DNA from: Candidatus Woesearchaeota archaeon
GTDB lineage: Archaea; Nanobdellota; Nanobdellia; Woesearchaeales; GW2011-AR9
DNA length: 64,000 nucleotides
Direction of reading: 5' to 3'
Assembly (NCBI GenBank): GCA_016179955.1
Contig: JACPCD010000005.1
Location: forward strand, 10,323 to 74,322
A model generated the notes under the pieces. It worked only from the letters and a program-made list of their open reading frames with translations. It made no database searches and was not told where the DNA came from. Below, one piece after another: positions 890 to 59,547 of this stretch. Within the stretch, counting starts at the first letter, position 1. Every line of letters begins with the position of its first letter. The translations under genes were made by a program, and so were the position numbers.

Positions 890-1341
890 TTTAAGAAAGT
901 TATAATCTTTTCGGGGATGGTGCAAAGAGGAGATTTATACTGGCCAAATCGATGTTTTTTAGCTTGGTTTAAACAAGACTCTAGCAATTCTACTTTATCG
1001 CAATAGCGCAGTGCCGAGGTTTCCTTGGCCATGGCCCGGAGATATTCCACTTGATGTCGCGGATCCGTCCTATCTCGGTTGGGAATAGCAATGAGTTTCT
1101 TTTTCAGCGTCAGCACTTCAAACACCACGCCCGGACCGCCATGGCTGATGACCAGTGACGCTTTCCGGTAATAGGGGGTTAGCGGGCTTTTGAAGGTGAA
1201 CCATTCACATTGGCGGGGCTTGTATTTCCCATGCCCTAATTGGATAATTACCTTATCTCTAATCTTTCCTCCCGCGACCAATTCATCTACTTTCTGCACC
1301 AATTCTTCAAACTTGCCATTTCCTACCGTAACGAAGATCAT
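886..1341 (-). CDS. Alg13-like glycosyltransferase subunit (GT28 C-terminal domain; PssE/Cps14G type)
   Basis: MIFVTVGNGKF... and ISHGGPGVVFEVL motifs typical of the Glyco_tran_28_C / Alg13 catalytic half. ATGA overlap with the Alg14-like gene at 1338-1341. Confidence 0.8.
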   Translation of the reverse strand: MIFVTVGNGKFEELVQKVDELVAGGKIRDKVIIQLGHGKYKPRQCEWFTFKSPLTPYYRKASLVISHGGPGVVFEVLTLKKKLIAIPNRDRTDPRHQVEYLRAMAKETSALRYCDKVELLESCLNQAKKHRFGQYKSPLCTIPEKIITFLK

Positions 1342-1820
1342 GACAGCCTCCCCGCAAAAATCGCTTTAGGATATACTTTTTTCAGGCTTTCCCACTGCAC
1401 AAAAAATAAGTCAGAAACTGGGTACACTAACCGTCCGGCCCAAGATTTATGGTGTACCCTCACCCAGGATTCAATGAAGATGGTCTTGATACCAATCATT
1501 TTCGCCAGCCAGAAGAGGGGTATCGCCAGGGAAGGGCCAGCGCTGAGGATTGCGTTCGGCTGAGAGTGCCTTAAAATTCTAAACCCGTCAAGAGTTGCCG
1601 GAAACATCTTAAAAAAAACCTTAACCAGAGAGTTATCCTTCATCAATCGCGGGTTTTTCATCGTATATACTTTTCCTTTGAAGTGAATCATATTTAAGGA
1701 AGTGGTATCATCGTGCCCCAAGACATATTCATATTCGTACCTTGGGCCAAGTCTCTGGACTACCTGCAACATCTGCGAGGTATGGCCGCCCATTCCCAGG
1801 ACGATGAGGAGCTTCTGCAT
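1338..1820 (-). CDS. Alg14-like membrane-anchor subunit of a split UDP-GlcNAc transferase (PssD/Cps14F type)
   Basis: LIVLGMGGHTSQML matches the Alg14 G-x-GGHT-x-x-M signature. Size is 160 aa. Translationally coupled to the Alg13-like gene. TATA box centred 27 nt upstream of the ATG. Confidence 0.8.
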   Translation of the reverse strand: MQKLLIVLGMGGHTSQMLQVVQRLGPRYEYEYVLGHDDTTSLNMIHFKGKVYTMKNPRLMKDNSLVKVFFKMFPATLDGFRILRHSQPNAILSAGPSLAIPLFWLAKMIGIKTIFIESWVRVHHKSWAGRLVYPVSDLFFVQWESLKKVYPKAIFAGRLS

Positions 1821-1843
1821 ATCGGTTCTCAGGTTTGATAATA

Positions 1844-1851
1844 TTTATAAA
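1844..1851 (-). promoter_or_regulatory. TATA-like box TTTATAAA (palindromic), 27 nt upstream of ATG 1820; may also serve the + gene at 1893 (45 nt away)
   Basis: Position measured by hand in the 72-nt divergent intergenic region. Confidence 0.5.
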
Positions 1852-1892
1852 GGTTTGGAAAGAGTAAATTACGCTATTATAGGGCTTTTTTA

Positions 1893-3677
1893 ATGGAAAA
1901 AAAGAAAGAAGAGTTGTCCATTCAGGGACCGGTTGGCCGGCAGAGCGAATTGCATAAAGAGGGTCCTGACCGTGCTTCCACCTCTCCCGCTAACAACAGT
2001 GAGGAGGGAGCAATATCCCGTAACTACGCTCGTTGGTCGGACCACGCCGCGGCGAAGATCTCCTCGTTTCTTAAAGATAAATATAACTTGGCATTTTTAG
2101 TGGTGTTATTTTTAGCTTTTCTGATCCGCCTGAAGTACATCGGACAGGAAAGCATCTGGAATGACGCAGCCGTGCATTTATGGTATGCGATTAAAGTAAC
2201 TCACCAGCCGCTTTTTATTTTTACTCAAGAATATCTGTTAGGTGATTATGCTACGGTTCAAACCTTAACCGCTTTTTTGTATTTGTTCACTAAGAATGTG
2301 TTGCTGGCAGGGCAAATCGTCGCTATGTTTTATGCGATTATCGGAATCATATTCATGTATCTTTTAGGAACTGAAATACGCAGCCGATTTACGGGATTGA
2401 TGGCGGCAACCTTATTAGCGTTTAATCATCTTTTTTGGTTTTACAGTGCTCGTCCGTTGGGAGATTCGCCACTTCTAGTTACTACCATTGTCCTTCTGTA
2501 TTGTATGGTCAGGTTGGAAAAAGAGAAAACTCTCCGCTGGGGGATACTCAGTGGGGTTATGTTTTTAGCAGCCATGTTTACAAAGCAACAATCTGTTCTT
2601 TACATCTTCGCCTTAGTGATTTATGTGCTTTTGTTTAGACGAAAGGAAATGTTCAAAAATAAGGCCTTGCTCGCCTCTTGGCTCATTCCCGTGGTTTCCA
2701 TACTTATTGCCCATGTTGTTGGAAAAATTTTCTTTCATGCAAAAGTTTTAGATCGGATCTTCAAACTATTCTTTGATTTGCGGGGTCTGCCATTTGGATT
2801 CGAAGCAGCCGGCATGCTGCAATGGATATTTTCGTGGTACCTGATTCCTTTTGTTATTATCGGGGCTTTGCTGGTCATTTTCTACCGAGAGAAAAAGTAC
2901 TATTTTGGACTGACCCTTTTTGCATTTTATTATCTGTTCTTTGAGGTAAATGTTGATAATACCCAAGATCGCTATGTTCTCCCGTTGTTTTCCATCGCCA
3001 TACTCTTGGCAGTCTTCGCCTTGGAAGAAATAAGCACTTACATCTCCATGTTTATCCATAAGTTTGCCAAACCAATTATCGTCATTGTCGTAGTCATTTT
3101 CATTAGCTGGAATTATTATCAGGTAGGCGATGCTCTCAATTATAATAAATCTTTTAGTTATTTGGGCTATCAGGAAGCGGGGCAATGGATGAAAGAGAAT
3201 GTTCCTGCCAAAGATCCCATCTTTGTCGGTGAGTATCGCTCGATACGTGCTTTCTCCGAGAGAGAATTTGGTGGCCCTATGCTGGAAGATTACGGCGGTA
3301 ATATCATTAATCTGCGCTCACCATACCGCTACAGCACCGAAGGGGTCAAACCCAAAGAGGAAGAGCAGAGAAACTTTGAAGAAGATATTTTGGTCTTATC
3401 GCAAAGTCGTGATATCTATCTTGAAATTGACATCTGGGAATACGCCCAGCCGACCTGGTACTGGCCCTTATCGCAGGCAAGCCTGGATTATTTCGTAAGC
3501 CTCGGGTTTTATCCCGTCAAGATAATCGAACGGCCGGTGTTGACCAAGGATGGGCCAAAAACCATTCCAGTCATCTTTATTTTAAAGAAAGACCGTACCG
3601 GAACAACGGCCAATGGTTCTCTCCTACAGACAGCAGTTAATGATGAAACACAATGGCGGCAAAAGTTTCTCAATTAG
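1893..3677 (+). CDS. GT-C fold membrane glycosyltransferase (GT39/ArnT/PMT-like)
   Basis: 594 aa. Hydrophilic ~60-aa N-terminus, then more than 10 hydrophobic helices. Acidic first-loop motif (ESIWNDAAVH). Soluble C-terminal ~150 aa. Confidence 0.65.
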   Translation: MEKKKEELSIQGPVGRQSELHKEGPDRASTSPANNSEEGAISRNYARWSDHAAAKISSFLKDKYNLAFLVVLFLAFLIRLKYIGQESIWNDAAVHLWYAIKVTHQPLFIFTQEYLLGDYATVQTLTAFLYLFTKNVLLAGQIVAMFYAIIGIIFMYLLGTEIRSRFTGLMAATLLAFNHLFWFYSARPLGDSPLLVTTIVLLYCMVRLEKEKTLRWGILSGVMFLAAMFTKQQSVLYIFALVIYVLLFRRKEMFKNKALLASWLIPVVSILIAHVVGKIFFHAKVLDRIFKLFFDLRGLPFGFEAAGMLQWIFSWYLIPFVIIGALLVIFYREKKYYFGLTLFAFYYLFFEVNVDNTQDRYVLPLFSIAILLAVFALEEISTYISMFIHKFAKPIIVIVVVIFISWNYYQVGDALNYNKSFSYLGYQEAGQWMKENVPAKDPIFVGEYRSIRAFSEREFGGPMLEDYGGNIINLRSPYRYSTEGVKPKEEEQRNFEEDILVLSQSRDIYLEIDIWEYAQPTWYWPLSQASLDYFVSLGFYPVKIIERPVLTKDGPKTIPVIFILKKDRTGTTANGSLLQTAVNDETQWRQKFLN

Positions 3678-4573
3678 CCACGATCCAAGTCGATCTGGAC
3701 GGGTTATGGACCAATCTGCAGTATTATGGGCATGACGCGCCCGTAAGCCCCGATATCGTATTTACGTCGGGATTGCGCCGTTATCTGGATCTCTTTGAGG
3801 AATTAGGCATAAAAGCAACTTTTTTTGTGATCGGGAAAGATGTTGGCATTCCGGAAAAAAAAGTCTTGCTTCAGGAAGCTCATGAAAAAGGGCATGAATT
3901 GGCCAATCATACATTTACACACCCCTTTGGTTTCCGCAAATTATCAGCATCGCAACAACAGGCCGAGATTGAGCAAGGGGAAAGAGCTATAGGTTCCATT
4001 ACCGGCAAAAAGCCACGTGGATTCAAAGCGCCAGGGTATGATGTTGACACCAAAATATTATCCTTACTTGCAGAAAAAGGGTATCTTTATGATTCCTCTG
4101 TTATCCCCACCCCGGCATATCCTCTTTTAATGAAAATAAATAGTATTCTCACCCGCAGTGTCTCTCGAAACCATGGCCCGCGGTGGAGTTGGGGAATGGC
4201 TCCCAATGCACCCTATCATCCTTCGTCAAAAAAGGTCTGGAGGAAGGGAAATAATCCACTCTTGGAATTGCCGTGTACCACCTTTCCCGTACTACGAATC
4301 CCTATCCATGCCACCTTTGCCGTAAAATTAGGATACCCTTTTTTCCGAGGGGCATTAGAAGTCGTAAAGAAAAGGGCTATTCCTTTAAATTATGAATTTC
4401 ATGCTGCCGACCTGTCTGACACTATCATCGACTCACGTCTGGGGCACCTGCAAGGGATCCCAATAGAAAAAAGAATGGCTTTAGTACGAAAGATGTTAGC
4501 AGCTATCTCCACCAATTATGAGCTTCGGACTTCTATTGAGTTGGCTCAGGAGTTTATCACCCATGGCCATTGA
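3653..4573 (+). CDS. Polysaccharide deacetylase (CE4 / NodB-homology)
   Basis: KATFFVIGKDV and ELANHTFTHP motifs (NodB metal/catalytic motifs). Directly upstream of a FemAB-like gene, as in EPS loci. Confidence 0.85.
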   Translation: MAAKVSQLATIQVDLDGLWTNLQYYGHDAPVSPDIVFTSGLRRYLDLFEELGIKATFFVIGKDVGIPEKKVLLQEAHEKGHELANHTFTHPFGFRKLSASQQQAEIEQGERAIGSITGKKPRGFKAPGYDVDTKILSLLAEKGYLYDSSVIPTPAYPLLMKINSILTRSVSRNHGPRWSWGMAPNAPYHPSSKKVWRKGNNPLLELPCTTFPVLRIPIHATFAVKLGYPFFRGALEVVKKRAIPLNYEFHAADLSDTIIDSRLGHLQGIPIEKRMALVRKMLAAISTNYELRTSIELAQEFITHGH

Positions 4574-5615
4574 ACTATTAACTCCACACACTGAATCGGA
4601 ATATGCAAGGTACGTCGAGCATCATCCTCGTGGAACTATAGAATTTTTAGTAGGATGGCGAGACTTATTGCAAACAAATTTTAAGTTTAAACCAGTCTAC
4701 CTCATACGAAAAAATTCTAAAGAAGTTATTGATGGAGTTCTTCCTTTGTCTTTAGCAAAGAGTATTTTTGGTACGCGGCTTGTATCCCTGCCCTATGCAG
4801 TTTCAGCAGGTGTATTGGCTGATTCTGAAGAAGCACTCAAAGAATTAGTATCTTTTGCCGAAGAGTTGGCCCGAACTGAAAAAGTCGATTTTATAGAGAT
4901 TCGTGAATCTGAAAAAGCAACACTTTATCCGGCATCTTTTCGTTGCTCCCAAAGCGTCTTCTCTTTTTCTTTAGCCTTAAGTCCAGATGTTGATGCGGTC
5001 TGGAAAAAACTTCCTAAAGGGAGCGTCCGCTGGGGTATAAAGAAAGCGGAAAAAAGCGGATTAACCCAGAGGCATGGAAACTCCAAAGAATACCTCGATG
5101 ATTTTTATCAGCTCTTCCTGCAAACCAGGAAATATCGTGGCGTTCCAGCCTACCCCTATTCTTATTTAAAAGGGATCATGGACTTATTTAGTGATAAAGC
5201 CCGTATTTACATCGCTGATTATAACCAAAAACCGGTTGCCGGGATACTTTTATTATATTATAAACAGGAAGTGCGTTACGCTTTTGCTGGTGCGATACCC
5301 CATCCTAAAATATTGCAGTTGCAGCCGTACCATTTACTCTTATGGCCGGCAGTTAAAGATGCTTGTGAGCGCGGATATACTGTGTTTAATTTTGGGGGCG
5401 CAGCCCTTACCACCAATGACGGGGGATTATATGAATTTAAGAAGAAATGGGCTGATAAAATCACCCCTATAGAATCTTATGTTTATACTCCTAAAAAAAA
5501 ATACGTGCCCCCGTCAGAAAGCCCGTTATTTAAGATGGCTGGAAAGCTATGGCAACATCTTCCTATTCCCATAGTTAAAGCAGTTAGCCCTTATGTTATT
5601 CGTCAGTTCGTTTAA
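4563..5615 (+). CDS. FemAB-family (GNAT-fold) aminoacyl/peptidyl transferase-like protein, paralog 1
   Basis: FNFGGAALTTNDGGLYEFKKKWA and C-terminal ...SPYVIRQFV are shared with paralogs at 13753 and 59548. The track start at 4518 overlaps the deacetylase by 55 nt; ATG 4563 (MAIELL...) overlaps by only 11 nt. Confidence 0.75.
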   Translation: MAIELLTPHTESEYARYVEHHPRGTIEFLVGWRDLLQTNFKFKPVYLIRKNSKEVIDGVLPLSLAKSIFGTRLVSLPYAVSAGVLADSEEALKELVSFAEELARTEKVDFIEIRESEKATLYPASFRCSQSVFSFSLALSPDVDAVWKKLPKGSVRWGIKKAEKSGLTQRHGNSKEYLDDFYQLFLQTRKYRGVPAYPYSYLKGIMDLFSDKARIYIADYNQKPVAGILLLYYKQEVRYAFAGAIPHPKILQLQPYHLLLWPAVKDACERGYTVFNFGGAALTTNDGGLYEFKKKWADKITPIESYVYTPKKKYVPPSESPLFKMAGKLWQHLPIPIVKAVSPYVIRQFV

Positions 5616-5708: not shown

Positions 5709-6422
5709 ATGAATACTAAAATTACAGTCGATGAAAATGAATTGCGTACGAAATGCCGATGGCCGAGAAACCCAGGCATTCTAGGGGATAAAATGATGGA
5801 TGAACTAGGGGTATATCTAGCGAAGCTACTCTTACATACCGCTATTGCCCCTAACCACTTGACGATTATGGGCTTATTTTCGGGTCTTATTGGTGTGGGG
5901 TTGCTTACTTTTCCTAATTATCTAATCGTTGGAATAGGATACCTCTTGATATTCCTTTTCGGGGTTATAGATTACACTGACGGTGTCATCGCGAGATATA
6001 AAAATATAGCTTCTGAGAAAGGGAAGTATTATGATGATTTAGGGCACTTCATTCCTCCCCTCATTTTTCTGGCAGTTGGGATACACATTCTTAACACTAC
6101 CGGGAACGTAACTGCAGTTATTTTAGGCGGGCTCTCATCATTTATGTACGTGAGTATTGACTTCAATGCAAAATTAATGAATCTCATCACTGGTGAAAAA
6201 AAGCATCAGCTTTATTTAACAGGTGCATCTCCCATCAGGTCCGCGATATTAAAGATACAGAAAAACCTCACTTTTGGGGTCCATATAATCATACTCTTCG
6301 GTATAGCTACCCTTGCAGAATATTTTATTCCTGAGAGTAGTTTCTACATGTTGCTATTTTTTGCTCCGTTCCTTACTCTTACTTTTTTTGCTCAGACATT
6401 TTTCTATTCTAGAAAACTATAA
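5709..6422 (+). CDS. CDP-alcohol phosphatidyltransferase-family membrane transferase
   Basis: DYTDGVIARYKNIASEKGKYYDDLGH fits D-x2-DG-x2-AR-x8-G-x3-D, but the last Asp position is His. Multi-TM. The track start at 5670 overlaps the remnant; ATG 5709 sits just after the remnant stop. Confidence 0.75.
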   Translation: MNTKITVDENELRTKCRWPRNPGILGDKMMDELGVYLAKLLLHTAIAPNHLTIMGLFSGLIGVGLLTFPNYLIVGIGYLLIFLFGVIDYTDGVIARYKNIASEKGKYYDDLGHFIPPLIFLAVGIHILNTTGNVTAVILGGLSSFMYVSIDFNAKLMNLITGEKKHQLYLTGASPIRSAILKIQKNLTFGVHIIILFGIATLAEYFIPESSFYMLLFFAPFLTLTFFAQTFFYSRKL

Positions 6423-6469
6423 ATTTTTGAGCGATTATTCCAATTTTTCTTATTTCTGTTTATTAAAAT

Positions 6470-7627
6470 TTAACTAATGCGCCGCAGGATGGTGCGCAAA
6501 GATTTTTCTGTAAGCTCCCGTGGATTGTTCTTTACCCTTTCCTGATTAAATCCATTGGCAACAATAATGTCGTGATCTTCCGGGGTGGTTATGTTAAGCA
6601 TGGCCAGTTTTCTGGTAAGTTCGATCTGATCCATAAGCTGGTTTATCTTTTGTTGCATCTCCTCTGGTGTCTGGACCCGAAAGATCGAACACAAATCGTC
6701 CATAGTTTTTTTAACATAGGCCGGTCCTCTTGTATCCAGACAATCTTCAGCATTTATTCCTGTATTATAAAGAGAAATTTCTCCTAAAGTCAAGGCACAG
6801 GCATGACCATGAGCAATGCCAAAATAAGATGTTAGGGGATAAGAGATGGAGTGGCAGGCGGTAGTTTTGGAAACATTTATCGCCTTGCCCGCAAGATTAG
6901 CTGCTTTCATCATGGCCGCACGATGTTGCAGTGAAGGATTAGTGACTGCAGATTTTAAATTATCTAAAACAATAGTAATTGCCTGCCGAGCGTAATCTTT
7001 TGATTCTTCTGTTGACTGATTGGACCAGTAGGATTCGACCGCATGACACAAAGCATCTATCCCGGTAGAAGCAGTAATATTCTTAGGCAAATTTAAAGTA
7101 AGGGTTGGTTCCAGGAATACATATTCTGGCAGCATCCATTCCTGATGAGCCAGAGAATATTTTTTTTTATGGATATAAACCACCGCAAAATGGGTTGCTT
7201 CAGAACCAGTTCCAGCAGTGGTGGGGATAGCAATCAGTGGTTTTGGTTTTTGGCTTGGCTCAATCTCTTTTTTGATATACCTCTCTGGTTCTTCCGGTTC
7301 CGCCACCAGAAAATTAATTGATTTGGCCATGTCCATGACGCTTCCTCCACCAATTGCAATAGCCAGATCGCTTTCAGCCTGTCGGAATAAAGCTATTCCT
7401 TTCTTAATGTCTTCAAGTTGCGGGTTGAGTGAAAAATCAGAGAAAGTAGTTACTTTATAAGCAGAAAGAAGCGGCTCCATCATTTCTTGTGCCCTTGAAT
7501 GTTGGTAAGAAATTTTACCAGTTACTAGAAATATTGAGGAAGGTTTTTCCTGTTCTAATACTTTTTTGAGACCAGCCAGGCTTCCTGAACCAACATATTC
7601 TTGCTGCATTTTTTGCATTTCAAGCAT
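6470..7627 (-). CDS. Iron-containing (group III) alcohol dehydrogenase; by context, phosphonoacetaldehyde reductase (makes 2-hydroxyethylphosphonate)
   Basis: 385 aa Fe-ADH architecture (GGGSVMDMAK glycine motif, His-rich metal region HAVESY...HGHACA). Lies 4 nt downstream of ppd on the same strand. Confidence 0.7.
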   Translation of the reverse strand: MLEMQKMQQEYVGSGSLAGLKKVLEQEKPSSIFLVTGKISYQHSRAQEMMEPLLSAYKVTTFSDFSLNPQLEDIKKGIALFRQAESDLAIAIGGGSVMDMAKSINFLVAEPEEPERYIKKEIEPSQKPKPLIAIPTTAGTGSEATHFAVVYIHKKKYSLAHQEWMLPEYVFLEPTLTLNLPKNITASTGIDALCHAVESYWSNQSTEESKDYARQAITIVLDNLKSAVTNPSLQHRAAMMKAANLAGKAINVSKTTACHSISYPLTSYFGIAHGHACALTLGEISLYNTGINAEDCLDTRGPAYVKKTMDDLCSIFRVQTPEEMQQKINQLMDQIELTRKLAMLNITTPEDHDIIVANGFNQERVKNNPRELTEKSLRTILRRIS

Positions 7628-7631
7628 CTCT

Positions 7632-8765
7632 TCATCTTTGAATAAATTCCATGAATTTATTTTTATTTTCCATCGGAGATTGCGTGGGCCGTCCTAGATC
7701 CTTACGCGCGCCTTTATTGCAGCGTATCTCTAATAATGCCGGACCTTTCCCTTGCTTAATTGTTAGTAATTCCTCCCGTATCTCCGTCGCATTCTCAGCA
7801 CTACAAAATGTTTTATACCCATTAGCTTTCGCTATTCCGGGAATATCAATAGCATTAGCGGCGGTAGGCTGTCCGCCAACGGAGTCATGGGCAAAATTGT
7901 TGAAAATGATATGGTTAAAGTTTGCTGGTCGTAATTTTCCGATGGTTGAAAGAACTCCCATATGCATAATTAAAGCTCCGTCCCCATCAAAACAATATAC
8001 TCTTTGATTCGGCTTCTGGAGAGCGATGCCTAAAGCGATGGATGAAGAATGCCCCATCGATCCGACAGTTAAGAAATCTTGGTGGTGTCCATGTCCTGCT
8101 GCTTTCCGAAACTCAAATAATTCCCGTGAGGTTTTTCCCGTGGTAGAGACAATGATATCACCTTTATCAAGAAGCGAGGCTACCAATTTAATTGCTTCCT
8201 CCCGAATCAAGGGGAAATGAGTCTCCTGTTTCGTTTTCAATGAATAGGAATCAAATGTCCCCTCTCGAACTACGAAAGCATAAGGAGTTTTAGTATTGTC
8301 CAAATGTTCAGCCGCTTTTTGTACTTCTTTTTTCACTTCCTCTTCACTTTCAGGAAGGATAGCATACGGAATTTCTAACACCTCCAGCAACGGCAAAGTT
8401 ATTCTGCCCATCTTGCGATGCTGCGGCTCATCTTTTTTTCCTGCTTCGCCCCGCCATCCGATGAGCAGCAGCAGCGGTAAGGAATAAATTTCTTTATCGG
8501 TAAGCGAGGTTAGAGGATTAATACAATTGCCTAATCCCGAATTCTGTAAATAAACTACGCCCACTCTTCCTGTTGCTAAATGATAGCCTGCGGCTAAGGC
8601 AATGGCATTTCCTTCATTGGCAGCAATGATATTATTTTTTGAAGAAGTATTATCTGTAACGTACGCACAGAAATCTTTCAACAGGGAATCAGGGACGCCA
8701 GCGTAAAAAGAAAAGCCGTGTCCATGCAATAGATTAAAAAAGTATTGCGGTGAAATCATCTCCAT
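7632..8765 (-). CDS. ppd: Phosphonopyruvate decarboxylase (TPP-dependent)
   Basis: N-terminus ...FFNLLHGHGFSFYAGVPDSLLKDF and TPP motif GDGALIMHMG...x...NN. Sits in a locus with PEP mutase. TATA geometry favours Met3 (ATG 8759) as a leaderless start. Confidence 0.85.
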   Translation of the reverse strand: MEMISPQYFFNLLHGHGFSFYAGVPDSLLKDFCAYVTDNTSSKNNIIAANEGNAIALAAGYHLATGRVGVVYLQNSGLGNCINPLTSLTDKEIYSLPLLLLIGWRGEAGKKDEPQHRKMGRITLPLLEVLEIPYAILPESEEEVKKEVQKAAEHLDNTKTPYAFVVREGTFDSYSLKTKQETHFPLIREEAIKLVASLLDKGDIIVSTTGKTSRELFEFRKAAGHGHHQDFLTVGSMGHSSSIALGIALQKPNQRVYCFDGDGALIMHMGVLSTIGKLRPANFNHIIFNNFAHDSVGGQPTAANAIDIPGIAKANGYKTFCSAENATEIREELLTIKQGKGPALLEIRCNKGARKDLGRPTQSPMENKNKFMEFIQR

Positions 8766-8781
8766 TCAGAGAAATATGCCG

Positions 8782-8789
8782 TTTATAAA
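8782..8789 (-). promoter_or_regulatory. TATA-like box TTTATAAA for the ppd-adh operon
   Basis: Centre is 26.5 nt from ATG 8759 (Met3) and 20.5 nt from ATG 8765. Confidence 0.5.
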
Positions 8790-8868
8790 AGTGATGAAAC
8801 GTGTTTCCCCATTAAATCTGTTGTCTTTAGGACTTGACAAACCCCAAGTTCGCAAGAAAATCATAACC

Positions 8869-8876
8869 TTTAAATA
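8869..8876 (+). promoter_or_regulatory. TATA-like box TTTAAATA for the radical SAM gene
   Basis: Centre is 27.5 nt upstream of ATG 8900. Confidence 0.55.
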
Positions 8877-8899
8877 TTCTCAAACTTCTTCAACTTTTA

Positions 8900-10438
8900 A
8901 TGAGTAAAAGTTCGCTTCCGATAATTAATACTGGACCCGAAGAAGATTGTTTCAATTCGTCCCCACGACGACTCTCTAAAGTACCAATGACGCCTGCCCT
9001 AGAAACTTTGCTTAATCCCCATTTACATAACAAAGAAGCTATTTTTACAAGCCCCATAAGACCGCCCGCGGAGGGTGAGAAAATATACCATCTTTCAGAG
9101 GAACAGATTAAAGCACTAAGGGATTTGAGAGGAAACACTATTGATCTTCATCCCGGCATGGGCGGGATTGCCCCCCATAAACTTATTGACATGATTAAGC
9201 AAGGAAAACCGCTAACTTCTTTAGATTATATGATCACCAGAGGATGTAATTTTGAATGCACTTGGTGTTTCGCTGGGTCTGATCCTTATCAAAGAGATTA
9301 TCTTCCTTTTAACGTTCTTGAATCATTAACCACAGAAGCTGCGGATATAGGAGTAAGTTTATTTGTTCTCACTGGTGGGGAACCGTTGGTATATAAAGAC
9401 CCCGCTCTAGGAAAACAAAAGGAGCGAGGGGACCATTTTTTTAGAATTGTTCAAATGATCAGAGATACTTATAATAGAAAGGATAATCCGGCAAAGATCC
9501 TTACCTTTGATGATGTAGCCTTAATCACGCCGAAAATTGCCAAAAATTTCGCTGATTTTGAGGTTGGCTTATGTACAAAAGGCGATACTTTAAACCCGGA
9601 ATTGCAAGATTTTAAAGTCAATCAATCAGGAGCATTTAAAAAAATGCAACAGGGATACGAAAACCTGATGCATGTTGGATATGGTAAAAATCCAAAATTA
9701 CGCTTGGTTGTTAATTCAGTTCTGGACCACACCACTTTTGATGGAATAATCGATCTTCACCTGTGGGTCATGAAAAATGGATTTGATCACTCGATTGTTC
9801 CAGTACACTATTGCGGCAATGCTGAAAATGAGGATCAGGAGGCAGGAATACATTCTCCGCATGTAAAAGTCCTCTATGATTTAATCACCAGAATTGATGC
9901 TGCATATTTTGGTGTAAAATGGGAAGCTTGGTCTGCGTTTACGTACAATAAAACCTGTAACCGGAATAGATCGGGGTTGCACATCAGGGCCGATGGAGAC
10001 GTTACCGCGTGTTCAGAATCCCCAGGGAGATCTGAAACCAATAAATATACTTTTGGTAATGTTTTATCCGATAAAAATTTTTCACTTAGAACGCTAGCTA
10101 ATAGCCAACAATTAGCTGCTTACCGGGAAGAATTTGCTAAAGGACATGGCACCTATGTCTGCTCCCCAAAAGTATGTGATTTGTATGCTAATGATTTATG
10201 TCAGGGCGGTTGCGCAACTCGATCAGCGTATTCAAAAATTGATTATGAAACTGGTCTGATTGTAAAAAACGATAACCCCCATAGTTATAGTGAATTTAGG
10301 GAAGACCCTTTATGTCCTGCTTGGACCGTTCTTGCTGAACGCCAGGGCGTTCTTAAAAAAAGTTTACTGAGAGAAATTCATGATCGGCTACTTTCCAACA
10401 GTCAAAGTATAGAAGCGAGAGAATTCCCTTTTTCTTAA
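8900..10438 (+). CDS. Radical SAM enzyme with C-terminal Cys-rich SPASM/twitch-like domain; substrate unknown
   Basis: CNFECTWC (C116-x3-C120-x2-C123) plus the GGEPL glycine motif. C-terminal CSPKVCDLYANDLCQGGCATRS. About 100-aa N-terminal extension with no motif I recognise. Confidence 0.8.
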   Translation: MSKSSLPIINTGPEEDCFNSSPRRLSKVPMTPALETLLNPHLHNKEAIFTSPIRPPAEGEKIYHLSEEQIKALRDLRGNTIDLHPGMGGIAPHKLIDMIKQGKPLTSLDYMITRGCNFECTWCFAGSDPYQRDYLPFNVLESLTTEAADIGVSLFVLTGGEPLVYKDPALGKQKERGDHFFRIVQMIRDTYNRKDNPAKILTFDDVALITPKIAKNFADFEVGLCTKGDTLNPELQDFKVNQSGAFKKMQQGYENLMHVGYGKNPKLRLVVNSVLDHTTFDGIIDLHLWVMKNGFDHSIVPVHYCGNAENEDQEAGIHSPHVKVLYDLITRIDAAYFGVKWEAWSAFTYNKTCNRNRSGLHIRADGDVTACSESPGRSETNKYTFGNVLSDKNFSLRTLANSQQLAAYREEFAKGHGTYVCSPKVCDLYANDLCQGGCATRSAYSKIDYETGLIVKNDNPHSYSEFREDPLCPAWTVLAERQGVLKKSLLREIHDRLLSNSQSIEAREFPFS

Positions 10439-10515
10439 GGTTAGATCTCCATTTGTAATTCCATTGAAGCCGTAAAAATATTTTTGAAGATATATCTTTA
10501 TTAAGTTTATTATAC

Positions 10516-10555
10516 CAAAAGACATAATTATTTATACAATTTGTTATGTCTTTTG
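10516..10555. terminator. Hairpin 1 in a convergent intergenic region (12-bp perfect stem CAAAAGACATAA/TTATGTCTTTTG, 16-nt loop)
   Basis: Arms at 10516-10527 and 10544-10555, paired by hand. Confidence 0.35.
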
Positions 10556-10561
10556 TATATA

Positions 10562-10599
10562 CAAATGGCGTAAATTTGTATAACAATTTACGTCATTTG
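10562..10599. terminator. Hairpin 2 (15-bp stem with one G-U, 8-nt loop TGTATAAC)
   Basis: Arms at 10562-10576 (CAAATGGCGTAAATT) and 10585-10599 (AATTTACGTCATTTG). Confidence 0.35.
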
Positions 10600-10631
10600 G
10601 TATAGGTAGGGAATTACCACTTAGTAAAGGA

Positions 10632-11999
10632 CTAAACCTTATTTCTTCCTTCTTGGTTAAACCAGGGAATCATTTCACCAAAAGCACGGGCAGAATTCTG
10701 TTTCCCTATCAACGAAAGTTCTCGCTGAGGTTCACCCGCAACCCTTCCGCCAATTCTCAAAACTAATAATTTTCCATCCGGTCCGCGAAAATTATGTGGA
10801 ACAAACGGCTTTACATACATAGAGTCGTTTGGCATGATGGATTCGCAATACTCGTGGTCATCAGTGCGCCAGTTAATGTTCACTGGTGAATTTCCCACAT
10901 TATACACATATTGATGCAGGCCGACTTTAAGATCTAGGATGTCTCGGTTTTTATCGGACTGTTTAAGAACTTTCAACTCCAAGGCCCGGGAGTGGGATAG
11001 ATGACTTGTTCTTGCCAATTCCACCAATTTATACGCTGGATCAATACTGGGAAAATCCCATCTCCGGTTAGTTCTATAATAATTGACCAACACTTTCTTT
11101 TGTATATCGTCTGGAGGCAGTAATTCCCGCCGGTCAATATTTAATGCTTCTGCCAGCGCTTCGAGGTCATCAGGTTTTGGTAAAACCGTTCCCAATTCAT
11201 ATTTTTCTAAAAGAGATAAAGAAAGTCCAGTTCTCCGAGTTAATTCCGGATGATCAATACCGGCTGCTTCTCTATGAAACCGTAGCAGAGAAGCAGCTGC
11301 TTTTTCTCGAGTAGAAAAATCCAAGGCATAATCAGCGGCAAGTTCTGGACCTATTGCAGATAATTCTTGTTGTGTTTCTCCGGCAAGCTTATTTCCATAG
11401 GTTAAAGCAAGAATAAGTCCTTTCTCGCCAGCCCTATTCTTGCGGGTGGCAAATGTATGCGGAACAAACGGAGTAATATACATGGAGTCGCCGGTATTCA
11501 TGACCGCAACTTTTTTATCCCCCCTTTCTCCTTTGTAATAAAAATTAACCGGACCGATAAAGTATGTAAATTGATGCAGGAAGTGTCCATTGTTCCATTG
11601 CACTGCCTGATGGTTAGCACTATTGTTATCTACTATGCACAGTTCTTTGATCCATTCCGGCCGAAATTGGCCGACCGTGCTGGCAACTGTATCGCGATAT
11701 TCATAATACGGCTGGCCGGCACGTTTCATAACCCGGCTAGTTTTGGCGGATTCTTTCGCTCGCATGATTTTAACACCGATTGGACAATCATCGTTGACAC
11801 AATAGAAATCACGTTCGTTGACCGGCCATATCCCTGCTGCTCGCCTTATTAATTCCGCCGGAATCTCTTTCTCACCACTTAAATAATAATTAAGTTCGTC
11901 CACTGGGATCTTAAGGTCAGCTGCTGCATCTTCCGGTCGGCGTTTGAGATCATTCAGAATGCCTAAGAGATTCTGCGCGCTTCTTTTTTTATAGTTCAT
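10632..11999 (-). CDS. mpnS: HEPD/MPnS-family non-heme Fe(II) 2-hydroxyethylphosphonate-cleaving dioxygenase; residue pattern predicts methylphosphonate synthase
   Basis: 455 aa with two (HTH + cupin) repeats. The first cupin has H139, Q143, H181 with F153 and I175. All five sit at a constant -9 offset from the N. maritimus MPnS residues H148, Q152, H190, F162, I184 as I recall them. No Glu at the position of the HEPD Glu ligand (I175 instead). Codons verified on the DNA (CAC 11585-11583, CAA 11573-11571, TTT 11543-11541, ATT 11477-11475, CAT 11459-11457). Confidence 0.65.
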   Translation of the reverse strand: MNYKKRSAQNLLGILNDLKRRPEDAAADLKIPVDELNYYLSGEKEIPAELIRRAAGIWPVNERDFYCVNDDCPIGVKIMRAKESAKTSRVMKRAGQPYYEYRDTVASTVGQFRPEWIKELCIVDNNSANHQAVQWNNGHFLHQFTYFIGPVNFYYKGERGDKKVAVMNTGDSMYITPFVPHTFATRKNRAGEKGLILALTYGNKLAGETQQELSAIGPELAADYALDFSTREKAAASLLRFHREAAGIDHPELTRRTGLSLSLLEKYELGTVLPKPDDLEALAEALNIDRRELLPPDDIQKKVLVNYYRTNRRWDFPSIDPAYKLVELARTSHLSHSRALELKVLKQSDKNRDILDLKVGLHQYVYNVGNSPVNINWRTDDHEYCESIMPNDSMYVKPFVPHNFRGPDGKLLVLRIGGRVAGEPQRELSLIGKQNSARAFGEMIPWFNQEGRNKV

Positions 12000-12104
12000 T
12001 TTATTCCAGTTGGGGCTACTATGTCAAAAATATGCCACCTGCCTATTTGACCGGTGGACCATGTCCCTCGGTGTGGTTTTCGGCAGCATATTGGGATTGG
12101 AGTC

Positions 12105-13409
12105 TCATTCACCATTTGGTATTAGAGTAATAATTTCTTTAATGGACATGCATTGTTCATTACTTGCTTCATAACTTCGTTTATTCTTTAAAATAGATTC
12201 TGCTGTTTTTACCATAGCAGGATAAGCACTACGCAATAAATGATTAGCATATACAACCATATTAACTCCTGCCGTAATAAGTTCTTCTTCAGTGATTATA
12301 GAATAGGTGCTAGGGACCACGACTAAACTTACTTTAGTCTCAAATTTTTTGTATTCCTTGCAAAACTGTAAAATTTCTTCCGGGTTCTTTTCTTTACTAT
12401 GGATCATTATTCCATCAGCTCCAGCGGCAATGTATGCTTTTGCTCTTTCCAGGGCGTCAGCTAAACCTTTCTTTAGAATTAAACTTTCTATTCTCGCAAT
12501 AATCATAAAATCATCGGAAGCCTGAGACTTTTTCCCTTCTGAAATCTTGCGGCAAAAATTTTCTATTGTATCCTGATTTTGCTCTACTTCAGTTTCAAAA
12601 AGAGAATTTCTTTTCGAACCAATTTTATCTTCAATTACCACTGCTGAGACGCCCAATCTTTCCAAGGTTTTTACCGTAAAGCGGAAATGTTCAATTAATC
12701 CTCCGCTGTCAGCATCTACCAGCATTGGTTTAGTAGTTACCTCAAAAATTTCACTTACAGTGTTGCCTATAGAGGTAATATCCACATATTCAATATCTGG
12801 TTTACCTTTAGAAGTAGCATGGGTCAAACTGCTTAACCAAGTGGCATCAAATGTTTTGGGGACATTATCTTCATCTTTCACCATGGTTTTTTCAACAATA
12901 ATCCCGGTTAAACCATTATGGGCTTCTAAGATGCGTATCATGGATTTAGCGTCCAGCAAACGCCGCAGCATATTGCGGCGAATATCGGGGGTAATTCCTC
13001 TTTGTTTAACTTTAGTTATTAGCTGGGTTGAAGAAATCCCCTGAGTATAAAGCGGTTCAACAACTTGGCCGCCCCATTCTTTCATCACCTCTATTACCCT
13101 TTGGCGCTTTTTTGCCTGTATCCCTATTTTCCAGTCATCGCCATGAACAAAATAATCCGGCTTTAATTCTCGTATGGCGGGGATGTAATCGTCATCTTCC
13201 TGCGCATAGACCTTGCTTACCGTGCGTATATTTTCAATAACTTTTTTACGCTGCTCAAAAGTCAATATGGGGAGCCGCTTATAATTAGCAATGGCCCGAT
13301 CGGTCAGAAGCCCCACTGTCACTTCTCCAAGTTTGCTGGCTTCATTAAGAATATTCATATGGCCGTCGTGGAGTAAATCGGCAGCCATGGGAACATATAC
13401 TTTTTTCAT
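12105..13409 (-). CDS. pepM: Fusion of a cytidylyltransferase-like domain (HxGH) and phosphoenolpyruvate phosphomutase
   Basis: N-terminal MAADLLHDGHMNIL (HxGH nucleotidyltransferase motif, ~135 aa). The C-terminal ICL/PEPM fold carries the PepM-diagnostic EDKIGSKRNS (EDK-x5-NS). SD-like GTGAGGT lies 8 nt upstream of the ATG. Confidence 0.85.
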   Translation of the reverse strand: MKKVYVPMAADLLHDGHMNILNEASKLGEVTVGLLTDRAIANYKRLPILTFEQRKKVIENIRTVSKVYAQEDDDYIPAIRELKPDYFVHGDDWKIGIQAKKRQRVIEVMKEWGGQVVEPLYTQGISSTQLITKVKQRGITPDIRRNMLRRLLDAKSMIRILEAHNGLTGIIVEKTMVKDEDNVPKTFDATWLSSLTHATSKGKPDIEYVDITSIGNTVSEIFEVTTKPMLVDADSGGLIEHFRFTVKTLERLGVSAVVIEDKIGSKRNSLFETEVEQNQDTIENFCRKISEGKKSQASDDFMIIARIESLILKKGLADALERAKAYIAAGADGIMIHSKEKNPEEILQFCKEYKKFETKVSLVVVPSTYSIITEEELITAGVNMVVYANHLLRSAYPAMVKTAESILKNKRSYEASNEQCMSIKEIITLIPNGE

Positions 13410-13752: not shown

Positions 13753-14802
13753 ATGGAAAATTATAAAATCTCTTTTCTGCAAGAGCAAGATTATGGTAAA
13801 TATGCTTCTTTCCTCAAAGAATGTCCCGAAGCATTATACGAACACGACCTCGCAATTAAAGACTTAGTTGCTAAACACTTTAAATTTAAACCAAGCTATT
13901 TAATTGCGAAAGAAAACGAAAAGATAGCTGGGGTTCTGCCCATCTTTGAAGCTAAAAGTATCCTGGAAGGAACCCGGTTTGTTTCCATTCCTTTTTTCCC
14001 TTTCGGCGGGGTTATTGGCAAGGATATTGACTGCAAAAGGCAGTTGCTGGATAAAGCGAAAGAGCTGGCAGCCAATGCTAAATTCCTCCAGATACGGCAG
14101 CGTGAAGAGCTTCTCCCGGAGTTAGTTCAAGAGATGGTGGTGCAGAAGCCCATCACCAATTTTTTTATTGATCTTAAAAAAGGAGAACCAGAAATGTTTG
14201 CTTCCCTGGATAAAAGCATCCGCTATGACATACGAAAAGCCCAGAAACACCATCTTCCTGTCGTTATTGGCACTACCCCTTTACTTCTGAATGATTTTTA
14301 TACCGTATACTTAAATACGCGGAAGAAGCGGGGAGTTCCTGCCTGGCCGTACGGCTTATTTCAACAGGCCTTGCAGAACTGCAACACAAAAGTCGCAGTA
14401 ACCTATCATCAACAAAAACCAATTGCGGCCAGTTTCCTGTTTATGGATAAAGAAACTATCGAATACGCCTTTGCCGGGACCGATTATCGTTACTCCTGGA
14501 TGTGTCCCTACTATCTTTTAATCTGGGAAATCATTCGTTTTGGTATTCGCAACAATTACAAGACTTTAGAGCTTGGTGGTTCTACCAGAGAGATGAATGA
14601 TGGAAATATGTACCTGTTCAAAGACCAGTGGGCCACCCGAAAAGCGGAGATTCCGTATTACTTCTATGCTGCTGATCCTCAAAATATTCCTTCCCTGCAC
14701 CGTTCCTTTGCTCTCTACCGTTGGTATGGCCGTTTTTGGCGTTTGCTTCCCACGGCAGTGATTAAAAGAATAAGCCCATTCATTATACGCCAGTTTGTGT
14801 AA
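13753..14802 (+). CDS. FemAB-family transferase-like protein, paralog 2
   Basis: Same architecture and C-terminus (...SPFIIRQFV) as the 4563 gene. LELGGSTREMNDGNMYLFKDQWA core. Confidence 0.75.
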   Translation: MENYKISFLQEQDYGKYASFLKECPEALYEHDLAIKDLVAKHFKFKPSYLIAKENEKIAGVLPIFEAKSILEGTRFVSIPFFPFGGVIGKDIDCKRQLLDKAKELAANAKFLQIRQREELLPELVQEMVVQKPITNFFIDLKKGEPEMFASLDKSIRYDIRKAQKHHLPVVIGTTPLLLNDFYTVYLNTRKKRGVPAWPYGLFQQALQNCNTKVAVTYHQQKPIAASFLFMDKETIEYAFAGTDYRYSWMCPYYLLIWEIIRFGIRNNYKTLELGGSTREMNDGNMYLFKDQWATRKAEIPYYFYAADPQNIPSLHRSFALYRWYGRFWRLLPTAVIKRISPFIIRQFV

Positions 14803-14841
14803 CCTCAAACATATAAACTAATACGAAAAAATTAAACCCCC

Positions 14842-15882
14842 ATGAACACCATCCATCGACGACTGGAACGAACCTTGGCTGCCTTTTCCGGGGTCAAGAA
14901 TGCAGTTCTTTTCAGCTCCTGCCGCAATGCTCTGTATACTTTACTTTTAAGTTTACAACTAAAGCCGGGAGATGAAGTAATCATTCAGTCATTCATTTGC
15001 GACAGCCTGACTCAGGCCATCCGTAAAGCTGGAGGGGCCGTTGTTTTTGCGGAAGTGGAACCATCCACACTCAACCTCCATCCACGAGAGATCCAACGAA
15101 AGATAACCCCTCAAACGAAAGCAGTTGTTTTTGTCCACACCTATGGAAATACATCAAATATAAATCAAGTCCAATCTTTATGCCGGAAGAAAAATATTAT
15201 CCTTATTGAAGACATCGCTCATGCTCTTGGTGCTACTTACCGAGGGAAACCCGCCGGTAGTTTTGGTGACTATGCCATTTATAGTTTTACCAAACAGATG
15301 ATCAATGTTGGCGGGGGTGCTCTGCTCAGCAATAAAGACCTTTCTCTCGTGCGTCGATTGCGTGACCAACCGAAAGCTAAAGCAAATTTTTTAGATTATG
15401 GTAAGCGGTTATTTGCCTCCCTATACGAAACCAGGGCTTTCTGGCTCTCCAAACTGATGATTGACTCGGTACGTTCCCGTCAAGATTTAAAGCTTGTTAA
15501 TGCTCTTTCCCCTCACTTCACCTGCAGTACGCTCGAAGCATATCTTGCCTTGCGACAGCTGAAATCCCTCTCACTGCTGATACGTAAGCGGCAGCGGAAT
15601 TATGAGTACCTCGCCAGATTCGTTAAAACTCAACAAGTTGTGAAAAAAGCAAGTTCCAGTTATAATTATCTTTCTTTTCTCTTTCCTAATAGCATCACCA
15701 GAGATCGTGCCTTACAAAAAAACTTTCTTTTTCTCCCCCCCTGGCCCGGAGCGGAAGTTTCCAGCACCCTGTTGTTTGTACCCAACAACCCTTTCTTTTC
15801 CAAGAAAAAGCTTCGTTTGTTAGTGCAGTCATACAATAAAGTTTATAAGCACCCGGCTGCGGGGACTATTCATGGAAAATAA
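14842..15882 (+). CDS. DegT/DnrJ/EryC1-family PLP enzyme (short, divergent), paralog A
   Basis: IEDIAHALGATYRGKPAGSFGDYAIYSFTKQMINVGGG, including the candidate Schiff-base Lys. Paralog of the 57775 gene. Confidence 0.65.
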   Translation: MNTIHRRLERTLAAFSGVKNAVLFSSCRNALYTLLLSLQLKPGDEVIIQSFICDSLTQAIRKAGGAVVFAEVEPSTLNLHPREIQRKITPQTKAVVFVHTYGNTSNINQVQSLCRKKNIILIEDIAHALGATYRGKPAGSFGDYAIYSFTKQMINVGGGALLSNKDLSLVRRLRDQPKAKANFLDYGKRLFASLYETRAFWLSKLMIDSVRSRQDLKLVNALSPHFTCSTLEAYLALRQLKSLSLLIRKRQRNYEYLARFVKTQQVVKKASSSYNYLSFLFPNSITRDRALQKNFLFLPPWPGAEVSSTLLFVPNNPFFSKKKLRLLVQSYNKVYKHPAAGTIHGK

Positions 15883-23918: not shown

Positions 23919-23938
23919 TGTTTCGAAAGGTTTAAATG
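23919..23938 (+). promoter_or_regulatory. Degenerate decamer TGTTTCGAAA + 2 nt + TATA-like TTTAAATG
   Basis: TATA centre is 25.5 nt upstream of ATG 23960. The decamer matches TGTTCCAGAA at 7/10 positions. Confidence 0.4.
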
Positions 23939-23959
23939 CGCACCTGCTCCCTCAAAAAT

Positions 23960-32260: not shown

Positions 32261-32282
32261 ACTTTGTTTCGCTTTTTTCTCA

Positions 32283-32302
32283 TTTAAAAATGTTCCGGAA
32301 CA
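32283..32302 (-). promoter_or_regulatory. TATA-like TTTAAAAA + 2 nt + decamer TTCCGGAACA (part of the perfect palindrome TGTTCCGGAACA) for the pseB operon
   Basis: Measured by hand. Same 2-nt spacing as the three other sites. Confidence 0.55.
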
Positions 32303-32363
32303 ATGATTAGATACCAAAATCCAACCTGCCACCACTAGGTCAAGTGAAGCAATCGAGAACCAT

Positions 32364-50294: not shown

Positions 50295-50316
50295 TCCATA
50301 AATTTGGGTCATAATA

Positions 50317-50336: not shown

Positions 50337-50348
50337 TTTAACACTTAT

Positions 50349-59546: not shown

Positions 59547-59547
59547 A

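Follow-up and report, generated by a model that had tools for sequence, protein, structure and literature searches.

A predicted methylphosphonate biosynthesis and activation cassette in a cell-surface glycan island of a DPANN archaeon

Esters of methylphosphonate (MPn) in dissolved organic matter are the accepted source of methane in oxygenated waters, and to our knowledge understanding goes no further than the four steps that yield free MPn, the activation of MPn and its fixing to polymers or lipids never having been demonstrated. How an organism might accomplish these later steps is the question raised by a gene cassette in a 64,000-nucleotide stretch of a metagenome-assembled genome of a Candidatus Woesearchaeota (DPANN) archaeon (GenBank assembly GCA_016179955.1, contig JACPCD010000005.1, positions 10,323 to 74,322), hereafter the window, whose own numbering is used throughout. 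We consider it likely, from the sequence of its genes, that the region between about 5.6 and 13.5 kb is a cassette for MPn biosynthesis and activation set in a cell-surface glycan island, in which the phosphonate would be activated with cytidine triphosphate (CTP) and transferred at the membrane. The core MPn pathway is already known, since clusters around MPn synthase (MPnS) in glycan loci have been recognised in Thaumarchaeota and SAR11, and its DPANN host is new. What lies beyond the described systems is the predicted logic of CTP, cytidine monophosphate (CMP) kinase and CDP-alcohol phosphotransferase (CDP-OH transferase), together with a conserved radical S-adenosylmethionine (radical-SAM) partner. 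The genes concerned are the following.

12990-13409, minus strand: cytidylyltransferase (CyTase) domain of the bifunctional PepM protein, residues ~1-140 (PF01467, Fom1 homology)
12105-12989, minus strand: phosphoenolpyruvate (PEP) mutase domain of the same protein, PEP to phosphonopyruvate (TIGR02320, motif, PDB matches)
10632-11999, minus strand: MPnS, 2-hydroxyethylphosphonate (HEP) and O2 to methylphosphonate and CO2; two-module helix-turn-helix (HTH)-cupin protein, 455 aa
8900-10438, plus strand: radical-SAM/SPASM protein, function unassigned, 512 aa (PF04055, PF13186)
7632-8765, minus strand: phosphonopyruvate decarboxylase (Ppd), phosphonopyruvate to phosphonoacetaldehyde, 377 aa (TIGR03297)
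6470-7627, minus strand: group III iron alcohol dehydrogenase (Fe-ADH), predicted phosphonoacetaldehyde reductase forming HEP, 385 aa (PF00465, PF25137)
5670/5709-6422, plus strand: membrane protein of the CDP-alcohol phosphotransferase family, 250/237 aa, candidate phosphonyl transferase (PF01066)
1893-5615, plus strand: flanking glycan genes for a PMT_2 GT-C glycosyltransferase, a polysaccharide deacetylase and a FemAB-like acyl/aminoacyl transferase (Pfam, NCBIfam)
13753-15882, plus strand: flanking glycan genes for a second FemAB-like protein and a DegT-type sugar aminotransferase (Pfam, NCBIfam)

Genes between 5.6 and 13.5 kb were identified from a map of open reading frames (ORFs) combined with Pfam and NCBIfam scans, the Pfam scan covering all but five of the window ORFs of at least 150 aa. 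The original prediction, made from the letters of the sequence, had located PepM, Ppd, an Fe-ADH and a double HTH-cupin enzyme within 5709-13409, and all four were recovered there by Pfam, NCBIfam and PDB matches. The PepM protein (434 aa, ORF 12105-13409) matched PF13714 with 187 bits and TIGR02320 with 386 bits (cut-off 319.6), carries the expected EDK-x5-NS motif as EDKIGSKRNS at residues 260-269, and its PEP mutase domain matched the PepM structures 5unc and 1m1b of the PDB. The enzyme read as a thiamine pyrophosphate (TPP)-dependent Ppd scored 500.8 bits with TIGR03297 (cut-off 312.5) and has its TPP-binding GDG motif at residue 261, and the presumed Fe-ADH at 6470-7627 matched both PF00465 and PF25137. 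The Fe-ADH gene starts 4 nt past the end of Ppd; an ADH follows Ppd in the related DPANN loci of sufficient extent, most other MPnS loci include one, and it is because of the conserved position after Ppd that the enzyme is predicted to be the phosphonoacetaldehyde reductase. Three elements came to light beyond those recognised earlier: the CyTase domain on PepM, the radical-SAM/SPASM gene that splits the cassette and the adjoining CDP-OH transferase gene.

The product of the cassette depends on the cupin enzyme, previously described as a 455-aa dioxygenase of the family comprising MPnS and HEP dioxygenase (HEPD). In searches against all PDB sequences, the 10632-11999 protein matched Nitrosopumilus maritimus MPnS (6b9s) with 531 bits (E = 2e-158) over residues 3-453, Streptomyces HEPD (6b9r) with 282 bits and the single-module epoxidase HppE weakly, a full-length match that places it with MPnS. 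The residues that verify an MPnS have been given as H148, Q152, F162, I/V184 and H190, and those that verify an HEPD as H148, A/Q152, I/Y162, E/G184 and H190 (PMC9381506, supplement file 2). In a MAFFT alignment with both PDB sequences, numbered after N. maritimus MPnS (NmMPnS), the window protein has H148, Q152, F162, I184 and H190, that is, the full MPnS signature with the 2-His-1-Gln iron site (H148, Q152, H190) of 6b9s, and the Streptomyces enzyme (SaHEPD), serving as control, has Tyr at 162 and Gly at 184. Also conserved in the same alignment are K28, R102, Y110 and N145, which we take to bind the phosphonate of HEP. By every membership test applied at the level of sequence the protein is an MPnS. 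Methylphosphonate, the product thought most likely from the start, is predicted over hydroxymethylphosphonate because of F162 and I184, found as in MPnS, and the His-Gln-His iron ligands. An HEPD-type dioxygenase yielding hydroxymethylphosphonate and formate would share the cupin fold and architecture, as the 282 bits reflect, but the far higher score with MPnS and the Phe/Ile pair at 162/184, in place of Tyr/Gly, make this reading very improbable, and the HEPD assignment was rejected on the bit scores and signature residues.

The NCBI record of the window MPnS, MBI2145790.1, is named "helix-turn-helix domain-containing protein", and several homologues bear the JGI label 'transcriptional regulator with XRE-family HTH domain'; annotation-based surveys would overlook such DPANN MPnS genes. 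Cupins that depart from the window enzyme were also seen. Three loci encode single-module HTH-cupins of 242 aa with the full H/Q/F/I/H signature (L053 943-1671, L054 2571-3299, L055 7128-7856), which lie directly upstream of a radical-SAM gene in clusters with PepM, Ppd and ADH and resemble a half-size MPnS-like enzyme. Two MPnS/HEPD-family proteins that adjoin a radical-SAM gene (L072 901-2139, L073 6455-7693) have Ala162 and His184, matching neither pattern, and a protein of the Marine Group I thaumarchaeote F20 (L013 2949-4295) is 56% identical to the window MPnS, yet has the HEPD-like Tyr162 and Gly184.

The closest relatives of the window MPnS in the protein search, at 64-73% identity, form ~19 clusters, and those members of the group that carry an organism name are Nanoarchaeota or Woesearchaeota; two loci from the genome scan (L001, L002) belong to it though labelled "uncultured Methanosarcinales archaeon". 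Loci labelled Thaumarchaeota, Chloroflexota, Patescibacteria, Acidobacteriota and Myxococcota have MPnS of ~51-57% identity, and those of SAR11 follow with ~43%. The PepM protein with its CyTase domain (CyT-PepM) is 56-62% identical to those of Agarilytica, Marinicella and Myxococcota against 31-35% to those of Thaumarchaeota, and for Ppd the corresponding values are 47-51% and 38-44%. The cassette thus looks like a mosaic, with MPnS nearest the thaumarchaeal type and CyT-PepM and Ppd much nearer the bacterial type. Some DPANN genomes with MPnS come from groundwater-labelled samples, and a search of the available literature found no publication linking MPnS or pepM to DPANN archaea.

How might the phosphonate be made ready for attachment? 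The N-terminus of the PepM protein is, by homology and motif, a Fom1-type cytidylyltransferase: residues 11-132 match PF01467 (62 bits), the domain is 57% identical to the CyTase of Fom1 (PDB 5x3d) over 133 residues (E = 4e-47), and its HxGH motif reads HDGH at residue 14. Fom1 itself converts HEP and CTP into CMP-HEP, and phosphonate clusters most often have Ppm fused to a nucleotidyltransferase of the PF01467 or PF12804 family (PMC6697681). A PF01467-PepM fusion is present in 20 of the 43 genome loci recovered through MPnS, its carriers being the DPANN loci L001-L005, SAR11, Agarilytica, Marinicella, one Myxococcota locus and Balneolaceae. Thaumarchaeal PepM proteins from these loci are unfused, and two other DPANN MPnS loci have a PF12804-PepM fusion instead. 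Both kinds occur in L005, as divergent genes (298-1629, minus strand, and 1757-3439, plus strand), one with the PF01467 cytidylyltransferase and the other with the PF12804 nucleotidyltransferase. Predicted nucleotidyl activation is a constant companion of MPnS outside Thaumarchaeota. The original prediction had spoken of candidate activation and transfer genes; the evidence for the transfer gene in this window proved weaker than it implied.

Since the characterised homologue uses HEP, the envelope-attached product might be HEP or a derivative, instead of or besides MPn, with the CyTase taking HEP, MPnS diverting part of the flux and the radical-SAM enzyme tailoring HEP-CMP. We regard this as rather unlikely, although Fom1 is the sole close CyTase homologue to have been characterised (PMC6697681) and the radical-SAM gene is also found in clusters of PepM, Ppd and ADH that have no MPnS (e.g. 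L064, L065, L079). Against it, the operon here and in all close relatives keeps an MPnS that is intact and has every residue of the active-site signature, and the same CyT-PepM fusion occurs in the MPnS clusters of SAR11. A SAR11 strain with such a cluster was reportedly found by Born et al. in 2017 to make MPn. Activation of MPn, and possibly of HEP, is the reading that we retain below.

A candidate for the subsequent transfer is the 5709-6422 protein, which matched PF01066 with 33.8 bits (cut-off 22) and whose start codon is probably at 5709, because its 93%-identical homologue P0121 has 237 aa. The closest solved structures are AF2299 (4o6m) and IPCT-DIPPS (4mnd); the donor of DIPPS is a soluble CDP-alcohol, and AF2299 is usually placed in one group with it. 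Seven DPANN loci (L001-L003, L049, L102-L104) share a co-directional operon with the order CyT-PepM, MPnS, an orphan of 280-298 aa or a radical-SAM gene, Ppd, Fe-ADH, cytidylate kinase and CDP-OH transferase, after which genes for a GT2 glycosyltransferase, PMT_2 and a GFO/IDH oxidoreductase usually come. If transfer ran as a CTP-driven cycle, a CMP kinase would be expected next to the transferase that releases CMP, and from this operon, the best evidence available, we infer the reaction of a CMP-phosphonate with an acceptor hydroxyl to give a phosphonate ester and CMP. The predicted window cassette is a rearranged version of the operon.

The pathway that we propose would begin with four steps well supported by sequence, in which the PepM domain would convert PEP to phosphonopyruvate, Ppd would convert this to phosphonoacetaldehyde, Fe-ADH would reduce the aldehyde to HEP, and the O2- and Fe(II)-dependent MPnS would turn HEP into MPn and CO2. 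Sequence likewise establishes which enzymes are encoded, the signature of the active site, the CyTase-PepM fusion and the synteny. The CyTase domain may then condense CTP with MPn, or possibly with HEP, to a CMP-phosphonate, from which the membrane CDP-alcohol phosphotransferase would pass the phosphonyl group on to an acceptor bound to the membrane, at one of its hydroxyls, with release of CMP. The acceptor may be a lipid or a lipid-linked glycan (an archaeol-type lipid and polyprenol were considered), and the radical-SAM/SPASM enzyme may act as a partner, perhaps on the cytidylylated alcohol. The transfer step is the weakest link of this model.

Several observations weigh against the proposal, most of them at that step. 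The canonical signature of CDP-alcohol phosphotransferases is D1xxD2GxxAR...GxxxD3xxxD4, and the motif of the window protein is DxxDGxxAR-x8-G-x3-D-x3-H (DYTDGVIARYKNIASEKGKYYDDLGH), with a His in place of D4, aligned to the Asp of AF2299. The protein is just 29-32% identical to the operonic DPANN type; its gene, convergent with that for the ADH, closes a plus-strand run of PMT_2, deacetylase, FemAB and CDP-OH genes. Of its homologues, P0122 (53% identical) lies in a housekeeping context without phosphonate genes and P0123 (44%) in a pepM-less glycan locus with deacetylase, FemAB and DegT genes, and no cytidylate kinase was found in the window by tblastn. Elsewhere in the pathway, the best NCBIfam model for the Fe-ADH, the phosphonate Fe-ADH model TIGR03405, scored 194 bits, below its equivalog cut-off of 423.7; sequence does not discriminate between MPn and HEP as the substrate of the CyTase domain, the characterised homologue Fom1 taking HEP; and many Woesearchaeota are described as anaerobes, while MPnS requires O2. 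The His at D4 is also present in P0121-P0123 and in the operonic DPANN type, the latter having Glu at D3 too, and because it is shared with these proteins we treat the window protein as a predicted variant subfamily. As a marker of phosphonate function the His was discarded, given that members from clusters carry H, C, D or S and non-phosphonate homologues carry H, and orthology of the window CDP-OH gene with the operonic type was likewise rejected, on the low identity and the location of its nearest homologues in non-phosphonate loci.

The pathway and the CMP activation may hold and the phosphonyl transferase nevertheless be another enzyme, encoded in the window or elsewhere in the genome, the 5709-6422 gene then belonging to the glycan operon and handling a different CDP-alcohol or CDP-archaeol. 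We take this to be a real possibility, although not the favoured one: it would agree with the non-phosphonate contexts of the closest CDP-OH homologues, with the gene sharing the direction of PMT_2, deacetylase and FemAB while being convergent with the cassette, and with the low identity to the operonic type. It agrees less well with the finding that CDP-OH genes of at least two paralogue types adjoin the cassette in at least 10 independent DPANN or related loci (counting the window, L001-L003, L021, L049, L050 and L102-L104), nor was any LicD, sulfatase/phosphoethanolamine (PEtN)-transferase or TagF-type family seen among the Pfam-scanned ORFs of the window. The 5709-6422 protein remains the best candidate transferase, with an uncertain assignment.

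Two further modules were noted in the related operons. The 280-298-aa orphan (L003 11425-12321; also in L001, L002, L004, L005 and L102-L104) sits between MPnS and Ppd, the slot taken by the radical-SAM gene in the window; it had no Pfam, NCBIfam or PDB match and no homologue in the window by tblastn, and may be an alternative accessory module to the radical-SAM gene. Upstream of the MPnS operon, L102 (1103-6299) and L103 (251-5483) have genes for a Phosphodiest protein of the alkaline-phosphatase superfamily, two unannotated genes and a PHP-domain gene. The same Phosphodiest/PHP module, possibly an outer-face head-group transferase, occurs in the pepM-less glycan locus of P0123 (JGI 3300072015) and was not found in the window by tblastn.

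Does the radical-SAM gene that interrupts the window cassette belong to the pathway? Its product (MBI2145789.1, the NCBI record adjacent to that of MPnS) matched PF04055 and, with 25.3 bits (cut-off 21.5), PF13186. Its CX3CX2C motif is CNFECTWC (C116, C120, C123), and these residues together with C353, C371, C421, C426, C434, C438 and C472 are invariant in 35 homologues, with a complete seven-Cys SPASM motif. The Pfam scan of the 8900-10438 protein gave no match to the B12-binding domain PF02310, which sets it apart from class B enzymes of the Fom3 type. In L049 and L070 a gene for a protein of 83-85% identity occupies the same slot in the same opposite-strand orientation, and in L050 it is co-directional, starting 2 nt past the end of MPnS and overlapping the start of Ppd by 4 nt. 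Homologues of 54-85% identity were found in Acidobacteria, Rhodospirillaceae, Gammaproteobacteria, Deltaproteobacteria, Patescibacteria, Omnitrophica and archaea. None of the 43 genome loci that had been collected by way of MPnS contains the gene.

To look at the family in its own right, 52 loci were gathered through the radical-SAM protein alone and their neighbours clustered. A nucleotidyltransferase (NTase) gene was a neighbour in 36 of the 52, Fe-ADH in 32, Ppd in 13 and an MPnS-like cupin in 12, and PepM genes likewise recur. The co-directional order NTase, Fe-ADH, radical-SAM was seen in ~17 loci and the order NTase-PepM, MPnS-like, radical-SAM, Ppd, Fe-ADH in ~6, with ~3 more in which ADH comes straight after the radical-SAM gene. 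Such enrichment is very large, because pepM occurs in just ~4% of bacterial genomes (PMC8942020). A chance insertion, at first suggested by the lack of the gene in the loci collected by way of MPnS, was dismissed, given that the gene's own homologues lie in phosphonate clusters, and we infer that the radical-SAM/SPASM enzyme is a real pathway partner, encoded by a conserved accessory gene of HEP/MPn-type clusters.

Most of the loci with the triad of NTase, Fe-ADH and radical-SAM genes (L071, L074-L078, L080, L081, L083-L087, L092, L093, L096, L099) have no PepM within 10 kb, so that it is with the NTase and Fe-ADH pair, more than with PepM, that the family is associated, and the triad may act on a non-phosphonate analogue. 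A PepM homologue lies ~4.4 kb upstream of the triad in L083 and L084, and the NTase of L077 carries a fused APS-kinase domain, with a sulfotransferase-like gene and a B12 radical-SAM gene nearby. At two loci (L051, L052) none of the NTase, ADH and PepM-type partners stands by the radical-SAM gene.

Comparison with solved structures gave little to choose between functions. A PDB sequence search returned just cluster-motif matches to MoaA (22 bits), and Foldseek searches with the AlphaFold model (pLDDT 84.5) returned anSME as the best match besides SuiB, SkfB, CteB, BlsE, DesII and viperin, a generic likeness of the SPASM fold with target-normalised TM-scores of 0.39-0.71, mostly 0.55-0.67. Assigning a function from these matches was rejected, general-fold or cluster-motif likeness alone not allowing one to be derived. 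The most economical guess, by analogy with fosfomycin biosynthesis, is that the substrate is a cytidylylated alcohol, just as HEP-CMP is that of the unrelated B12 enzyme Fom3; Fom3 is described as a radical-SAM enzyme recognising cytidylyl-HEP (PMC6697681; reference 39 of PMC9204698). Our literature search found no publication on this radical-SAM/SPASM family in phosphonate clusters.

For what purpose would MPn be made here? The surroundings were originally described as glycan machinery throughout, and the 64-kb window does contain genes for GT2, GT1 and GT-C/PMT_2 glycosyltransferases, NeuB, DegT, deacetylases, FemAB-like proteins and a flippase; it further encodes a UDP-GlcNAc 2-epimerase, a PseB-like dehydratase, a CMP-sugar synthetase-type protein and, in all, three FemAB-like proteins. 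PMT_2 and GT2 genes flank the DPANN MPnS operons L003, L050, L102 and L104 too. The absences reported at the outset were also found: among the Pfam-scanned ORFs no class V enzyme was seen that could be a 2-aminoethylphosphonate (AEP) transaminase, the aminotransferases present being DegT-type sugar enzymes, and no C-P lyase; and no fosfomycin or phosphinothricin tailoring or resistance family was recognised among those scanned by Pfam or NCBIfam. The earlier proposal of envelope decoration, as opposed to a secreted antibiotic, is favoured by context, because of the glycan island, the CyTase-fused PepM and the adjoining CDP-alcohol phosphotransferase; the genes support the view that MPn is made for the cell envelope rather than as an antibiotic.

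The cassette has parts parallel to Fom1, Fom2, FomC, the radical-SAM enzyme and the cupin of fosfomycin synthesis, and with a Fom1-like CyT-PepM, a Ppd, an Fe-ADH, a radical-SAM enzyme and a cupin of the HppE superfamily all there, it could be imagined to yield a fosfomycin-like secreted small molecule. We give this next to no credence: the radical-SAM enzyme has a SPASM domain and no B12-binding domain, the cupin has the two modules and the Gln ligand of an MPnS where HppE has a single module, the Pfam and NCBIfam scans recognised no FomD-like hydrolase or FomA/FomB-like kinase family, and the neighbours are all glycan genes. A fosfomycin-type pathway was rejected on the first three of these grounds, and an envelope role for MPn is the reading that we keep.

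Other parts of the island are of separate interest. Genes for NeuB, the CMP-sugar synthetase-type protein (PF02348), DegT and the PseB-like dehydratase, at 23936-25042 and 29364-32335, point to a nonulosonic-acid pathway in the same island. Two of the three FemAB-family paralogues (4518-5615, 13753-14802 and 59536-60588) bracket the phosphonate cassette; for these two the best NCBIfam model, below cut-off, was the XrtA/PEP-CTERM-associated FemAB, the third having been scanned by Pfam alone, and together the paralogues suggest aminoacylation or acylation of the glycan. At 50304-51902 on the plus strand, 37 kb from the cassette, is a gene for a 532-aa cobalamin-binding radical-SAM protein with PF02310 present, whose best PDB match is the aminoglycoside enzyme AprD4 (6fd2, E = 1e-17); it is not Fom3-like by that test and probably modifies a sugar.

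The cassette may be set beside several known systems. The MPnS cluster of N. maritimus lies in a glycan/exopolysaccharide neighbourhood, clusters of this kind in Thaumarchaeota and marine bacteria have been read as serving the synthesis of MPn esters, and marine MPnS gene neighbourhoods have been surveyed before (PMC9381506; PMC8942020). Nitrosopumilus maritimus and other Thaumarchaeota (pepM, ppd, pdh, mpnS, with nucleotidyltransferase and sulfatase-family neighbours) have the same four-step pathway and MPnS active-site signature and a similar glycan neighbourhood, the window MPnS being 52-57% identical to those of Thaumarchaeota-labelled loci. They differ in an unfused PepM (31-35% identical) and in a Ppd of 38-44% identity, the host here being DPANN, and neither a CDP-OH transferase nor a cytidylate kinase nor a radical-SAM gene turned up within 10 kb in the thaumarchaeal loci. 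In the MPnS clusters of SAR11 (Pelagibacteraceae) and other bacteria, MPnS, Ppd and Fe-ADH likewise stand beside a PF01467 CyTase-PepM fusion, but the MPnS is 43-45% identical, and neither a CDP-OH transferase nor a radical-SAM homologue was detected within 10 kb. With the Streptomyces fosfomycin pathway (Fom1, Fom2, FomC, Fom3, Fom4) the cassette shares the bifunctional CyTase-PepM, Ppd, Fe-ADH (FomC being the ADH counterpart), a radical-SAM enzyme and a cupin of the HppE superfamily; it differs in the B12-less SPASM enzyme, the MPnS cupin, the lack of a recognised FomD, FomA or FomB and the glycan genes around it. The Pnt systems, in which PntC occurs with LicD or CDP-OH (e.g. the 'Burkholderiales_CDP-OH' AEP clusters), follow the same logic of Ppm-nucleotidyltransferase plus transferase and place phosphonate on the cell surface via phospholipid-type transferases (PMC6697681; PMC8942020). 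They handle AEP with an AEP transaminase, whereas the cassette, archaeal, belongs to the HEP/MPn branch with MPnS.

These results extend the range of MPnS to DPANN archaea and, since the DPANN enzymes are annotated as transcriptional regulators, sources of MPn may be undercounted. They also expose a highly conserved radical-SAM family tied to NTase and Fe-ADH pairs and to phosphonate clusters. We tentatively put forward, as a possibility that we rate below even, that the radical-SAM enzyme is a phosphonate-tailoring enzyme of an undescribed kind, a non-cobalamin counterpart of Fom3 acting on a nucleotide-activated 2-hydroxyethyl compound (e.g. HEP-CMP), and that the DPANN operon is the missing route of MPn attachment. 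The former, if true, could give rise to a novel phosphonate head group, and a more speculative outcome is a way to methylphosphonate that needs no O2; the latter would mean transfer from CMP-methylphosphonate to a membrane acceptor, giving a methylphosphono-lipid or a lipid-linked glycan. The cassette and, above all, its operonic DPANN relatives place a CTP-dependent activating domain, a CMP kinase and a putative CMP-releasing transferase beside MPnS, and so offer a short list of proteins, testable in vitro, for the steps by which MPn may be activated and attached.

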